From: Bacteroidaceae bacterium
GTDB taxonomy: Bacteria; Verrucomicrobiota; Verrucomicrobiia; Opitutales; UBA953
NCBI GenBank assembly: GCA_963620895.1
Contig: CAVFCB010000001.1
Coordinates: 1-63,675 of the forward strand
DNA: 63,675 nt
Reading direction: 5' to 3'
Shown here: positions 16,025 through 60,008 of the stretch, in pieces
How the letters are laid out: the number at the start of each line of letters is the position of its first letter
How positions within the stretch are numbered: position 1 is the stretch's first letter
Position numbers and translations under genes: made by a program
The notes under the pieces: generated by a model
The model's input: the letters and a program-made list of their open reading frames with translations, nothing else
Database searches by the model: none
Told to the model about the DNA's origin: nothing

Positions 16025-16114
16025 ACGGTTGATTTGTGTTCGCCGGAGAAGAAAAATGATCTCGCTCTCCGGGGCAAGAAAAACATCTCCCGCGCGGGAA
16101 CGCGCGTTCCCGCG

Positions 16115-16942
16115 CTATTCGCTCAGCAGGGCGGGAAATTCCGGCGGGAGCGGCGATGCGGCGGCGAAGCGAACGATTTTTCCGCGGAGCGGGAACGCGA
16201 TTTCGACGGATTCCGCGTGAAGAAAAAGTCGGTCGCGCACGGCGGGAACGGCGCAACTTGCCGCGCGCGCGTTCAGCCGAAAATCGCCGTAGGTTTTGTC
16301 GCCGAAAATCGGAATTCCGCGCGAAGCGCATTGCACGCGGAGCTGATGCGTGCGCCCCGTGTGCGGCTCGAGCCGCAGGAGCGTTCCCGCGGCGGGCGCA
16401 CCGCCGTCGCCGAGCGCAAGCGTTCCCGTGCGCACAACGCGGCAAAGCGTTTCCGCAAAAAGCGCGTCGCGCGAATTTGCCCGCGCGATTTCCACGCGCA
16501 ACGCACCGTCGCGGGAACGCCCGCGCCGCAGAAAATCCTGCCAAAGTTCCTGCGCGGGAACGACTTTTCCGCGCACGATTGCGGCGTAGATTTTTTTCAC
16601 TCCGCCTTCGCGAAAAGCGCGGCGCGCAGCCGCGGCAACGCGTTCGTCCGTCGCGGCGAGCACGACACCGCTCGTCGGCGAATCAAGGCGATTGAGCACG
16701 AAGACGCGACGAATTTTTCCGCCGGGAACGCGGCAGGAATAGCACTCGTCGCGCAAGCTGTAATCGCCGACGAAAAGCGATTTTTTTGCGATCCCGGGCG
16801 CGTTCGGATGAGTCATCGTTCCCGCGGGTTTTTCCAACGCGAAGATGCCGGCGGCGTCTGCGGCGAGCACGCGCACGCCGTGCCCGAACGGCAACGTTGC
16901 CTCCAACTCTTTTCGAAAATCCTCGTCGGCGGAAGAGCTCAT
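16115..16942 (-). CDS. RluA-family pseudouridine synthase
   Basis: EKPAG, NRLDSPTSGVVL, TGRTHQLRV, GDKTYG and LFLHA motifs. Confidence 0.92.
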   Translation of the reverse strand: MSSSADEDFRKELEATLPFGHGVRVLAADAAGIFALEKPAGTMTHPNAPGIAKKSLFVGDYSLRDECYSCRVPGGKIRRVFVLNRLDSPTSGVVLAATDERVAAAARRAFREGGVKKIYAAIVRGKVVPAQELWQDFLRRGRSRDGALRVEIARANSRDALFAETLCRVVRTGTLALGDGGAPAAGTLLRLEPHTGRTHQLRVQCASRGIPIFGDKTYGDFRLNARAASCAVPAVRDRLFLHAESVEIAFPLRGKIVRFAAASPLPPEFPALLSE

Positions 16943-16948
16943 TTTTTC

Positions 16949-17995
16949 TCAACGATAATGAAAAGTGATTCGCGTTTTTTCTTTTTCGGAACCGAGGAGC
17001 GCGAGCATGTCTCCGCGCCACGGATCAAACGGCGCGCGCGACAGCACGGCGTCGAGACACGCGTAGGCGGCGGGCTCGGACGCCGAGGAAAAAACGATTT
17101 GCGCATCTTCCGTCGTGCCGTCGGAATTCAGCGTAAATTCGACGATGACAACGGCGCTCGGCTGCACGATTGCCGAGCGGTTCACCGCCGTGTACCACGC
17201 GGCTTGAATCGCTTCGAGCATGCGTTGCGTGTAATCGCCGTATTCGCTGAATTTTGCGTCGAGCGAGCAAACGCCCAACTCGCTCACGGCGGTGTTGCTG
17301 CGCATCGTGATGGATTTGAGTCCGGGCGGCGGAAGAATTATCGGACGCGGTGCCGGCTCCGGGCGCGAGGTTTCGCCGGGCGCATCGTCTGCGGGAACGT
17401 TTTCGCCGCGCGCGAGCGTTCCCGAGGGCGAAACGGCGATGTCCGCGCCGTGCGTGCGCGCGACGGGCTCGGCGGTTTCCGGTTCCGGCGACGCTTTTTT
17501 TGCGGCTTCGCCGGGAACGGGCGTTCCCGCGCGAAACTCCGGCGGCAAAAGCTCGCGCGGGAGCACGTTTTCCGCGACGGCGCGCGATTCCGCGAGTTCG
17601 CCGTCGTTTGTCGGCGTGCGGTCGCGCGAATTCGGATCGGGATTTTCCTGCGCGGCGCGCTGATCGGCGGCGGAATGATTTTGTTCGTCCTTGGGCGTTG
17701 CGGCGGGCGCGTTCGGATTCGCGGGAACGAACTGCGGCTTGCGCCGAAATTCTTCCGGCAAAAGCTCCTCGGGAATTTTTTCCAATTCGCGCACGGGAAC
17801 GAGCTCCACCGGCTCTGCGGGAACGACGGTGCGGGAAAGCATTTCCAACGTTTGCGGCGCCGCCTCATACGCCGCAAGATGCGCGAACAACGCAAGCGCG
17901 CCGGCGGCAAGCGCACGACGAAGCGGGAACGCGCGGTAGGCAACTTCGTAAAGCCGCCGCCAATTTTTCCCGTTCCCGCAAAGTGCCGTGCTCAT
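16949..17995 (-). CDS. TonB/TolA-like protein
   Basis: N-terminal hydrophobic segment with His, long Pro-rich linker, and C-terminal VEFTLNSDG...SRAPFDPW...ITFHY domain. Confidence 0.65.
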   Translation of the reverse strand: MSTALCGNGKNWRRLYEVAYRAFPLRRALAAGALALFAHLAAYEAAPQTLEMLSRTVVPAEPVELVPVRELEKIPEELLPEEFRRKPQFVPANPNAPAATPKDEQNHSAADQRAAQENPDPNSRDRTPTNDGELAESRAVAENVLPRELLPPEFRAGTPVPGEAAKKASPEPETAEPVARTHGADIAVSPSGTLARGENVPADDAPGETSRPEPAPRPIILPPPGLKSITMRSNTAVSELGVCSLDAKFSEYGDYTQRMLEAIQAAWYTAVNRSAIVQPSAVVIVEFTLNSDGTTEDAQIVFSSASEPAAYACLDAVLSRAPFDPWRGDMLALLGSEKEKTRITFHYR

Positions 17996-58178: not shown

Positions 58179-58181
58179 GGG

Positions 58182-59933
58182 TTAAATTCCTTTCTCCGGT
58201 TTCAGCACAAGCTTGAGCGTGAGCGTGGGGAAATTGGGGCGGAGAAAATCCGCTTGGTCCGTAAGTTTCTCCACGAATTCGGATTTTCTGAAGACGTCGA
58301 GCACGGCGCGACGGCGGGCGTTGAACGCCGCCGCATTGTGTTCCGGCTTCGCGCCGTCCACCTGCGGGATGAGCAAACGAAGTTTGAGCAAAACCTCGGT
58401 GCGCACGGTCGGCTTGGTCGCCGCGGCTTCTTCATCGCCGTATTCGGACTGCGTCGGCGCCTGCACGGTTCGGGAAACCGACAGACCGTCGATCCAAACG
58501 TGACGATTGGGAGAAACGCTTGTTTCGCCGTCCCCGGAAACCGTCGGCGCCTGCAACGCGGAAATCCGCGACTGAAGATCGGCGAGAAACGCATTCCACG
58601 CGCCGCGGGAAGCGAGAACGCCGTCGAGCGTTTCGGCAAATTGTGCGGCGGGAACGTTGCGTTGTTCGAACGCGGAAATTTCGCTCTGATAATTTTCCAA
58701 CTGCTTTCTCCGTGCGCTGAGCTCGGAGTTTTCGGAATCGAGCGCATCGCACCGACCCTGCAAACCGAAGAAAAGCGGCAACGGCGCAAGCGCAAAAAGC
58801 AACGCCGCCGCGATGAAGAACGGTTTTTGCTTCGAAAAAGTGAGCGCGTCCGCAATCTGTTGCGGCAAAAGATTGACCTGCTTGTGGTCCGTGCCGAGAA
58901 GCTCGCTGGCATCGCCGATAACTTCCGACAACTGGAATCGCACGGAATCGAAATAACCGGCGTCCACGCCCGCCGCGACCTGCACGGGAGCGGTAGGTTC
59001 AAAGTATTCGACCGGAAGGTGTTGCGATTCCGCAAGCGAATCGGAAAGACCGGGAAGCAACGAGCCGCGCCCGGTAAGAAGAATCTTCACGGGAACGCCG
59101 GACGGACTCTGCCGCTTCTGATTGACGATGCGGCGCGTGATTTCCTGCCCGAGACGCCGGCAGAACGCCTGCGCGGATTCCCGAAGTTTGAGCACGTGCG
59201 GATCATCGTCCGCAACATCCATCGCCCCGGAAAAATAATTGACTTTAAGCCGCTCCGCCGCCGGGAACGGCTTGCCGAGCGAATCCGCAATCGACTGCGT
59301 CAGGAAGTTCCCGCCGACGGCGACGTTCTGAATGCTGAAACCCTCCGGAGTGACGAAAGTGAGATTGGTCGTGCGGGCGCCGACGTTCACGATGAGGACG
59401 TTTTCCGTCGCGTCCACGTTAAGGAAACGATACGCCTGATAATCGAGATTCGTGGACGGCTGGATAATTTCCGGCGTGATGCCGGAGCGAAGCATTTGCT
59501 GGGCGAAACGTTCCGCGTTCTCGCGCTTGATCGCGAAAAGAACGACTTCCGCCTCGACGCCGTCCGTCGAAATAATCTGGCTGTCCCAAACGAGATCGCC
59601 GAGCGGGAACGGGAATTTGTCCGCCGCTTCGAAAGAAATGATTTGGCGTTGCCGCGAAGCTTCGACCTGCGGCACCTTGACGTTTTTCGTCAGCAGCAAA
59701 TGCCCGGGCGCAATGACGGTCGCGGCGCCTTTGAGCTTATATTTTTTGAAAATACCGCTCAGTGCGGAGGACGCGGCAAATGCCCACTCTTCCTCCTCCA
59801 TGTAGTTATAAACGAGGTCTTCGACCACGAGCTTCTCGATAACGAGACTGCCCGCTTTTTCCGAGAAAACCGAAACGGAAACGTGCGTCGTTCCGCAGTT
59901 TACCGTAATTTTCTTTTTTGCGTTACTGCCCAT
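58182..59933 (-). CDS. pilM: PilM-type actin-like domain fused to PilN-like region (Amuc_1101-like)
   Basis: FEAADKFPFPLGDLVWD, VNVGARTTN, VGGNFLTQSIA, LLTGRGS and VNLLP, then TM, coiled coil and VWIDGL. Confidence 0.85.
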   Translation of the reverse strand: MGSNAKKKITVNCGTTHVSVSVFSEKAGSLVIEKLVVEDLVYNYMEEEEWAFAASSALSGIFKKYKLKGAATVIAPGHLLLTKNVKVPQVEASRQRQIISFEAADKFPFPLGDLVWDSQIISTDGVEAEVVLFAIKRENAERFAQQMLRSGITPEIIQPSTNLDYQAYRFLNVDATENVLIVNVGARTTNLTFVTPEGFSIQNVAVGGNFLTQSIADSLGKPFPAAERLKVNYFSGAMDVADDDPHVLKLRESAQAFCRRLGQEITRRIVNQKRQSPSGVPVKILLTGRGSLLPGLSDSLAESQHLPVEYFEPTAPVQVAAGVDAGYFDSVRFQLSEVIGDASELLGTDHKQVNLLPQQIADALTFSKQKPFFIAAALLFALAPLPLFFGLQGRCDALDSENSELSARRKQLENYQSEISAFEQRNVPAAQFAETLDGVLASRGAWNAFLADLQSRISALQAPTVSGDGETSVSPNRHVWIDGLSVSRTVQAPTQSEYGDEEAAATKPTVRTEVLLKLRLLIPQVDGAKPEHNAAAFNARRRAVLDVFRKSEFVEKLTDQADFLRPNFPTLTLKLVLKPEKGI

Positions 59934-60008
59934 CGGGTGTTGTGTTTATGAAATTGAACGTGAAAAAAATCTGCGCGGGAACGCCGTTTCCGCGCGGGAA
60001 CGGCGAAA

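Follow-up and report, generated by a model that had tools for sequence, protein, structure and literature searches.

Which role can be assigned to a short word that recurs in inverted pairs at hairpins along a bacterial chromosome, and is hairpin formation its purpose or a by-product? The question is raised by a stretch of 63,675 nucleotides (the window; assembly GCA_963620895.1, contig CAVFCB010000001.1, here G000:C1:1-63675) from a gut bacterium whose genome, G000, spans 1.86 Mb in 181 contigs. A sequence-only reading of the window had proposed that intrinsic terminators and intergenic hairpins are built from inverted pairs of the 9-mer GCGGGAACG. We find that enrichment of the word in predicted terminator stems is real and that this interpretation is partly supported; the terminator finding alone is supporting evidence and not the novelty. 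The 8-mer core of the word, CGGGAACG, behaves in sequence like the DNA uptake sequence (DUS) and the uptake signal sequence (USS) and is a member of neither family. We lean towards the view that it is a self-DNA uptake-sequence-like tag, secondarily co-opted into predicted terminators.

A hyper-abundant word written into coding sequence

The core occurs 7,777 times in the whole genome, at 4.2 copies per kb or one per 240 bp. Of these copies, 5,334 have a G as a ninth base at the 5' end; the invariant core is the 8-mer. Genome-wide, the 9-mer stands 2,737 times on the plus strand and 2,597 times on the minus strand, and the reversed word only 30 and 22 times. The word is short, non-palindromic, present in more than 1,000 copies and balanced over both strands, as DUS and USS are.

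Most copies (6,230, or 80%) lie inside called genes and use all six frames. Genes were called with our own Markov model, trained on 33 genes of the window and returning 1,380 genes genome-wide, which misses low-GC genes, including those at window positions 13018-16024. Among tripeptides that occur more than 150 times, the most over-represented are VPA (6.1-fold), AGT (5.7-fold) and RER (4.1-fold), compared with 1.1-fold for APV and 1.0-fold for TGA as reversed controls; 1,402 of the 1,508 AGT tripeptides are spelled by GCGGGAACG. Use of all frames, together with tripeptide enrichment over reversed controls, is a second trait held in common with DUS and USS.

Could such abundance be an artefact of codon or amino-acid usage in a GC-rich genome, in which GCG, ACG and CCG are preferred codons? 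Synonymous-codon shuffles leave 566-622 copies against the 6,086 observed in genes, a ten-fold excess, and the excess over codon-order shuffles is about 28-fold. Furthermore, the word occurs in genus loci of 50-64% GC but not in stretches of 57-71% GC from sister genera, and its density is higher outside genes than inside them. We give this explanation virtually no credence and regard it as refuted. The earlier statement that the motif is not a codon-usage artefact is thus upheld, but not by the intergenic copies offered in its favor; the case rests instead on the shuffles and on cross-species conservation.

Copies are spread almost evenly. At least one is present in 744 of the 756 genes of 900 bp or more, and counts per kb are slightly over-dispersed (mean 4.2, variance 4.7). 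Genes for ribosomal proteins, RNA polymerase, gyrase and RecA and most pilin genes are word-poor, as are low-GC stretches with restriction genes. Long copy-free gaps are mostly of low GC, some with restriction genes, and others hold ribosomal, RNA polymerase or gyrase genes. Scarcity in foreign DNA is what we infer here, the foreign origin being judged from GC and gene type only. One stretch with no copy, G000:C32:1-3500 (L099), holds a type I methyltransferase gene and, next to it, two genes that share a length of 246 aa and the same start; of these two, the one that was scanned belongs to the RhuM family.

Conservation and decay across the genus

From named relatives, the genus is taken as Candidatus Spyradosoma (Opitutales); a search with ribosomal protein L25 gave ten relatives, 72-94% identical. 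The other 18 genomes of the genus all show enrichment of the word, 14 with 3,060-5,581 copies of the 9-mer and four with 340-760. Outside the genus, two overlapping samples were searched, one from the order (385 genomes) and one from the phylum (396); no genome in either rises above about 0.09 per kb, the largest 9-mer count being 326 in 3.8 Mb, and the word is absent from the 4-20 kb taken from each of six sister-genus genomes.

In codon alignments to G018 (246 genes), 470 of 1,004 G000 copies stand at the same position, at an amino-acid identity of 74% away from copies. Third positions within copies are kept far more often than in the same codons elsewhere (GGA 156/222 versus 15%; GTT 172/216 versus 12%), and the sequence on either side of a copy is less conserved than the remainder of the protein (0.68 versus 0.74). 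Conservation across species and placement in permissive protein regions are again found in DUS and USS. Outgroups share none of 151 copy positions.

The four low-density species carry the same word at 0.4-0.6 per kb in 41-66 kb sampled from each, and no dialect or replacement word was found in these samples. The 66 kb sampled from the species of lowest density, G015 (L029-L032), also hold poly-C runs and many CACCAACCC-type words, probably a coding repeat. We placed these species in an RpoB tree made by a quick method from 27 rows. It leaves out G017, G029 and G030, in which the gene is split or incomplete, and every sister genus in the family. In this tree G001, G002 and G014 (0.36 9-mers per kb) are nested beside G008 (1.71 per kb) with approximate likelihood-ratio support (SH-aLRT) of 99, and G015 (0.18 per kb) sits on a separate branch. 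The nested clade lies only about 0.02 RpoB changes per site from its dense relative across a five-fold drop in density. Of its aligned copies, 30 of 47 fall on G000 positions, which reads as decay of ancestral sites; one nested clade thus appears to have lost copies.

These patterns bear on the possibility that an abundant nucleoid protein specific to the genus binds the word, and that direct selection maintains the word for its part in organising the chromosome. The near-uniform coverage of long genes would suit such a role, and synonymous conservation fits selection as well as drive. Conversely, a five-fold loss over so short an RpoB distance is hard to square with an essential role, and no such protein has been identified, no comparison of gene content between the genus and its sisters having been made. 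We consider a nucleoid site quite improbable.

A metagenome scan with PilM gave no conspecific haplotypes for a recombination test. Phage mimicry was rejected after two viral scans: among the matches listed (80 and 50 flanked loci) none exceeded 0.84 extra copies per kb, and the one short dense viral match inspected is a tandem repeat.

The word in predicted terminators

Word density is 18.4 per kb in convergent spacers, 8.2 in tandem spacers, 7.8 in divergent spacers and 3.9 in genes. Within the 107 convergent spacers, at pair offsets of 12-40, 34 pairs have CGTTCCCG first and 7 have the reverse order, where random placement gives 11.7 pairs per order and a maximum of 20 in 300 placements. 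The CGTTCCCG-first pairs are preceded by 5.6 A and followed by 5.9 T per 10 nt (background 2.4 and 2.3). DUS and USS likewise form inverted pairs in tail-to-tail spacers, flanked by A/T tails and preferentially in one order. Forward tandem spacers hold 24 pairs against 12.7 expected, and reverse tandem spacers show no excess (14 versus 11.7). In divergent, head-to-head spacers, 22 CGTTCCCG-first pairs are found against 8.7 expected, and these are without tails, as at window positions 33504-33545.

A terminator finder blind to the word, which took hairpins of -12 kcal/mol or better followed by a T tract behind likely operon ends, returned 187 distinct terminator-like hairpins. The word is contained in 109 of them, against about 18% expected at 8 per kb, and on both arms in 64, with CGTTCCCG first in 58 of the 64. 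Among mid-gene control hairpins, 8/40 contain the word and 0/40 have it on both arms; for hairpins upstream of divergent starts the figures are 15/30 and 6/30, a two-arm share that does not differ significantly from that of downstream hairpins (p 0.14). Two of the checks that had been suggested, namely whether stems hold the motif beyond background and whether pairs have a preferred orientation, therefore come out in favor of the sequence-only reading. Its claim that terminators are built from inverted pairs holds for the genome-wide enrichment in tailed stems, but untailed pairs are also in excess in divergent spacers. Rho is also encoded. Two metatranscriptome runs held 5% of the words, on contigs of a relative of about 90% identity, and cannot show transcript ends.

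Might the word then be primarily a terminator or hairpin module, with all other copies as spill-over? Its density is highest in convergent spacers, and in low-density species a greater proportion of the copies belongs to tailed pairs (12/119 versus 98/2,508, in a small sample whose kin are not independent). Against this, the 80% of copies in genes are mostly unpaired, just 219 of 7,777 (2.8%) lie within predicted terminators, and loops and stem lengths vary between orthologous terminators. Nor is there a likeness to repetitive extragenic palindromic (REP) sequences and bacterial interspersed mosaic elements (BIME), which are longer conserved palindromes confined to intergenic DNA; here the loops are unrelated between sites, and most copies are genic. 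A primary role as a terminator or REP-like module is very improbable, since the copies in coding sequence, and the conservation of these copies, largely refute it.

Orthologous loci indicate how the word may have reached these stems. Downstream of rplI, it stands in a tailed hairpin in 8 of 10 genus relatives, on both arms in five, and the loops and lengths of these hairpins differ, which argues that no longer element is being copied. At three outgroup rplI loci no word is found in the hairpin. In Pelagicoccus-type outgroups, the place of the pair between rplY and pth (44943..44960) is taken by a hairpin without the motif, followed by the same TGTTCTTT. Taken together, the two comparisons suggest that the word entered pre-existing hairpin sites. 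In the closest relative by L25, the rplI hairpin (L001:9820-9895) lacks the word and consists of a long, unrelated inverted repeat.

A tailed stem of the form AAAAGCGTTCCCG...CGGGAACGCTTTT is also found, among the matches listed, in contigs without a background of the word at 72 of 79 metagenome loci of at least 1.2 kb; seven word-dense loci with the tailed stem, among the matches listed, all match G000 proteins at 65-90%. Since the same stem occurs in word-free contigs, a single hairpin is not diagnostic; the proportion is.

Sites within the window

The dispersed word, the nine sites listed by the sequence-only reading and the pilus operon are as follows.

1..63675, both strands: dispersed 8-mer CGGGAACG, 133 copies on + and 134 on -; 9-mer GCGGGAACG, 96 and 97
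16092..16115, - strand: 24-bp perfect palindrome, CGGGAACG-first pair; covers the final base of the RluA stop; flanking genes on the same strand; U run at a distance of 8 nt
31209..31247, + strand: predicted terminator, exact pair; convergent genes; T7 on + only
32178..32222, - strand: predicted terminator, exact pair; after kbl, tandem (kbl to rluA); U9 tail
33504..33545, unstranded: pair exact for the 8-mer but not for the 9-mer; loop of 23 nt; divergent kbl/purC spacer; no U tract; not terminator-like
42862..42908, - strand: predicted terminator downstream of rplI; one arm exact, the other short of a base; tandem; U6
44943..44960, - strand: pair of abutting copies, stem of 7 bp; rplY and pth in tandem; weak tail
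46578..46613, unstranded: predicted bidirectional terminator; SDR gene / rpmE, convergent; single copy across the loop; A7/T7
52945..52980, unstranded: predicted bidirectional terminator, exact 8-mer pair; oppF-like gene / secretin gene, convergent; A7/T6
59974..60003, + strand: two copies in direct orientation, not shaped like a terminator; lies between the Amuc_1102-like gene and pilM
52996..60797, - strand: type IV pilus operon, Amuc_1098-1102 type; secretin, an unassigned gene, Amuc_1100-like, PilM, Amuc_1102-like

All nine stretches are found where they had been placed, and the observation of them is partly confirmed. Eight hairpins fold, with z from -1.8 to -9.0. Exact inverted 8-mer pairs are present at six sites (16092, 31209, 32178, 33504, 44943 and 52945), but one arm at 42862 is defective and 46578 has a single copy. 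A U tract adjoins the stem on the strand of the upstream gene at five sites (31209, 32178, 42862, 46578 and 52945), and the shape of an intrinsic terminator (a hairpin, then a U tract at once, downstream of a stop codon) is likewise seen at five of the nine. The description of many sites as flanked by A/T tracts between convergent genes does not hold in that form: only three sites are convergent, five lying between same-strand genes and one between divergent genes, and four are without an adjacent U tract. The palindrome at the RluA stop is perfect, as had been reported, and overlaps the last base of the stop. Its rarer pair order and a U run 8 nt off make it doubtful as a terminator. The cluster at 59974-60003 does hold two copies, but in direct orientation and with no terminator shape.

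Comparison with known systems and rival explanations

The signatures of the word (both strands, all frames, tripeptides and conservation) match those published for USS and DUS (PMC2817400, PMC1852404). Kingsford et al. found DUS/USS words in 55% of Neisseria terminators and 17-29% of Pasteurellaceae terminators, with the same kind of order bias (PMC1852404); the parallel drawn with inverted-repeat terminators in Neisseria and Haemophilus is accurate in this respect. Compared by eye with the motifs in PMC1852404 and PMC2817400, the word matches no DUS or USS dialect, and only GCGG is common with USS.

Like the DUS of Neisseriaceae, which is read by the minor pilin ComP, it is a short non-palindromic word with thousands of copies on both strands, used in all frames with tripeptide enrichment and forming inverted pairs, in one preferred order, in about half of terminators (PMC1852404, PMC3630211, PMC2817400). 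The 9-mer density of 2.9 per kb is near that of the densest dialect, Kingella oralis with 5,918 in 2.4 Mb, although DUS is longer and the figures are not like for like. In contrast with DUS, the sequence is unrelated, its 8-nt core is shorter and its host belongs to another phylum; ComP family match and ComEA alike were not found, a single word occurs with no dialects in the four low-density species sampled, and untailed pairs are in excess in divergent spacers. With the USS of Pasteurellaceae the word has in common the 9-nt scale, both strands, a proteome imprint, a place in poorly conserved protein regions and presence in terminators (17-29% for USS; PMC1852404). Unlike USS, it has no AT-rich extension, its tripeptide enrichment is 4-6 fold as opposed to about 2 fold (PMC2817400), and no ComN/PpdA-type receptor has been shown.

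Two other abundant motifs introduce a further rival, a bias at recombination or repair by which word-bearing alleles win, either through a Chi-like RecBCD signal or through a methylated repair-directing site as proposed for HIP1, with terminator use again secondary. Chi is also a non-palindromic G-rich 8-mer, and unpolarized Chi candidates have been reported in Vibrio (PMC8022716). Genes for RecB, RecC and RecD are present, the RecD match being over the cut-off and those of RecB and RecC being best matches under it; they lie on three contigs (RecB G000:C14:20391-23741, RecC C13:19828-23319, RecD C59:2158-3957) and not in one operon. HIP1 (GCGATCGC), a hyper-abundant cyanobacterial octamer of unresolved function, is likewise conserved at coding sites (PMC5861425, PMC4390886). 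The failure to find ComEA in 12 genus genomes also counts for this rival.

Several results speak against it. With the leading strand inferred from the GC skew of 20-kb tiles or contigs, no Chi-type leading-strand polarity was found: the G-rich strand holds 532 versus 429 copies (55%) in 17 tiles of four skewed genomes, shuffled-letter controls giving 54%; no strand effect remains with gene direction controlled (p 0.49), and the two strands hold 817 and 730 copies along 23 tiles of G018. Unlike Chi, the word is enriched in predicted terminators, and one copy per 240 bp is about twenty times denser than the one per 5 kb of E. coli Chi (PMC8022716). HIP1 is a palindrome linked to a pair of orphan methyltransferases; the word here is not palindromic, and none of the three methyltransferase families tested is conserved in the genus. 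MmeI-type enzymes are found in 10 of 19 genus genomes and not in the three densest (G003, G006 and G010), and the C5 and N6/N4 families in 3/5 and 4/5 genomes. We regard a recombination or repair bias as unlikely, though the likeliest of the rivals.

Competence machinery and a candidate reader

If the word is a self-DNA uptake tag, a pilus-borne or periplasmic protein would bind it during natural transformation, and incoming word-bearing fragments would replace alleles without the word in a form of molecular drive. Purifying selection would exclude it from constrained genes. Since terminator stems tolerate any self-complementary sequence, they would fill with word pairs.

The genome has open frames for ComEC, DprA, ComM, two PilB, PilT, PilC, PilD, a secretin and seven pilins, and a ComF-like gene is present as an open frame with a match under the cut-off. 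The comEC gene (G000:C95:1211-2980, L086) carries 14 copies, making it the 38th densest of the 756 long genes. Pfam scores of ComEC are lowest in dense genomes (138-144 bits in G000, G006, G003, G016 and G007) and reach 162-168 bits in G001, G002 and G014, with G015 as an exception at 147.

A stand-alone 128-residue orphan type IV pilin (G000:C42:5493-5879) is a candidate reader. It is found in all 17 other genus genomes searched, at 49-85% identity. In sister genera, 6 of 43 genomes give weak matches, mostly to the N-terminal helix, the longest being 26% over residues 2-111 (E 2e-5); three other pilins give long matches in 4/4 sister-genus genomes. However, other Opitutales families have distant relatives that match over the full length, some of them arranged in tandem, so the short pilin may simply be a major pilin. 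Its predicted fold is that of a type IV pilin (pLDDT 86). The best structural score is to Thermus PilA4 (Z 6.9, rmsd 3.2, 109 aligned), ahead of ComP (Z 4.2, rmsd 6.4, 95 aligned). No Foldseek match was obtained at E 0.001, and atlas matches are generic pilins; there is thus no specific fold relative. As a reader of the word, the short pilin would be a weak candidate and a lead only.

Several observations count against an uptake tag. The ComEA models HHH_3 and TIGR00426 match only Tex in the 12 genus genomes searched, and no Pfam match to the ComP family was found among the seven G000 pilins, the short pilin having been scanned minus its first residues. ComEC and PilT are present in 61 of 61 family genomes searched, 43 of which come from genera without enrichment, so their presence does not discriminate. 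The short pilin has no head cysteines, and hence none of ComP's disulfides, and its net charge is near zero. No AT-rich extension like that of USS stands beside the copies. Low-density species keep ComEC, DprA, PilT and the short pilin intact, so no gene loss was found that explains the decay. Finally, the sequence signatures would look no different if the drive acted at recombination or repair.

A lost gene as the cause of decay was rejected on these intact genes and on pilin counts (7 or 10-11), which do not track density. The higher counts of N-methyl pilins occur in G001, G002, G004, G013, G014, G015 and G018, the other twelve genomes having 7; the extra pilins form one cluster, present in all four low-density genomes and also in three dense ones.

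It is tempting to consider the word as the mark of a third independent origin of self-specific DNA uptake, Neisseriaceae and Pasteurellaceae being named as the only known cases in PMC12616744. We rate this at somewhat short of an even chance. Such an origin would lie outside the Proteobacteria, in a Verrucomicrobiota genus, with a receptor unrelated to ComP, possibly the 128-residue orphan pilin, and with no canonical ComEA; the word would have rewritten proteome and terminators more heavily than in Neisseria or Haemophilus, and one nested clade would be losing it. No published report of the word was found in the literature searched, which was mostly open-access and without supplements. A word of unrelated sequence that shows these signatures in a different phylum would offer an independent case for testing whether drive or selection builds such words. 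Indeed, the genus is a natural experiment, near-identical relatives differing five-fold in density and the low-density ones keeping a subset of ancestral positions. If the uptake reading is wrong, what is left is a hyper-abundant motif that, like HIP1, has no explanation, and it too deserves to be solved.

Other features of the window

The gene content of the window fits Verrucomicrobiota, including the Amuc_1098-1102-type pilus operon, which is context only, with no link to the word shown. An Rfam scan of the window returned one tRNA and nothing else. A ParB-family gene lies at 2093-3154. On the minus strand at 13018-16024, three open reading frames of 279, 182 and 549 aa lie in a stretch of 50.5% GC and give no Pfam match; those of 279 and 549 aa have a near-identical signal-like N-terminal segment in common. 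This stretch carries the word at host density, with 14 copies in 3,170 bp.

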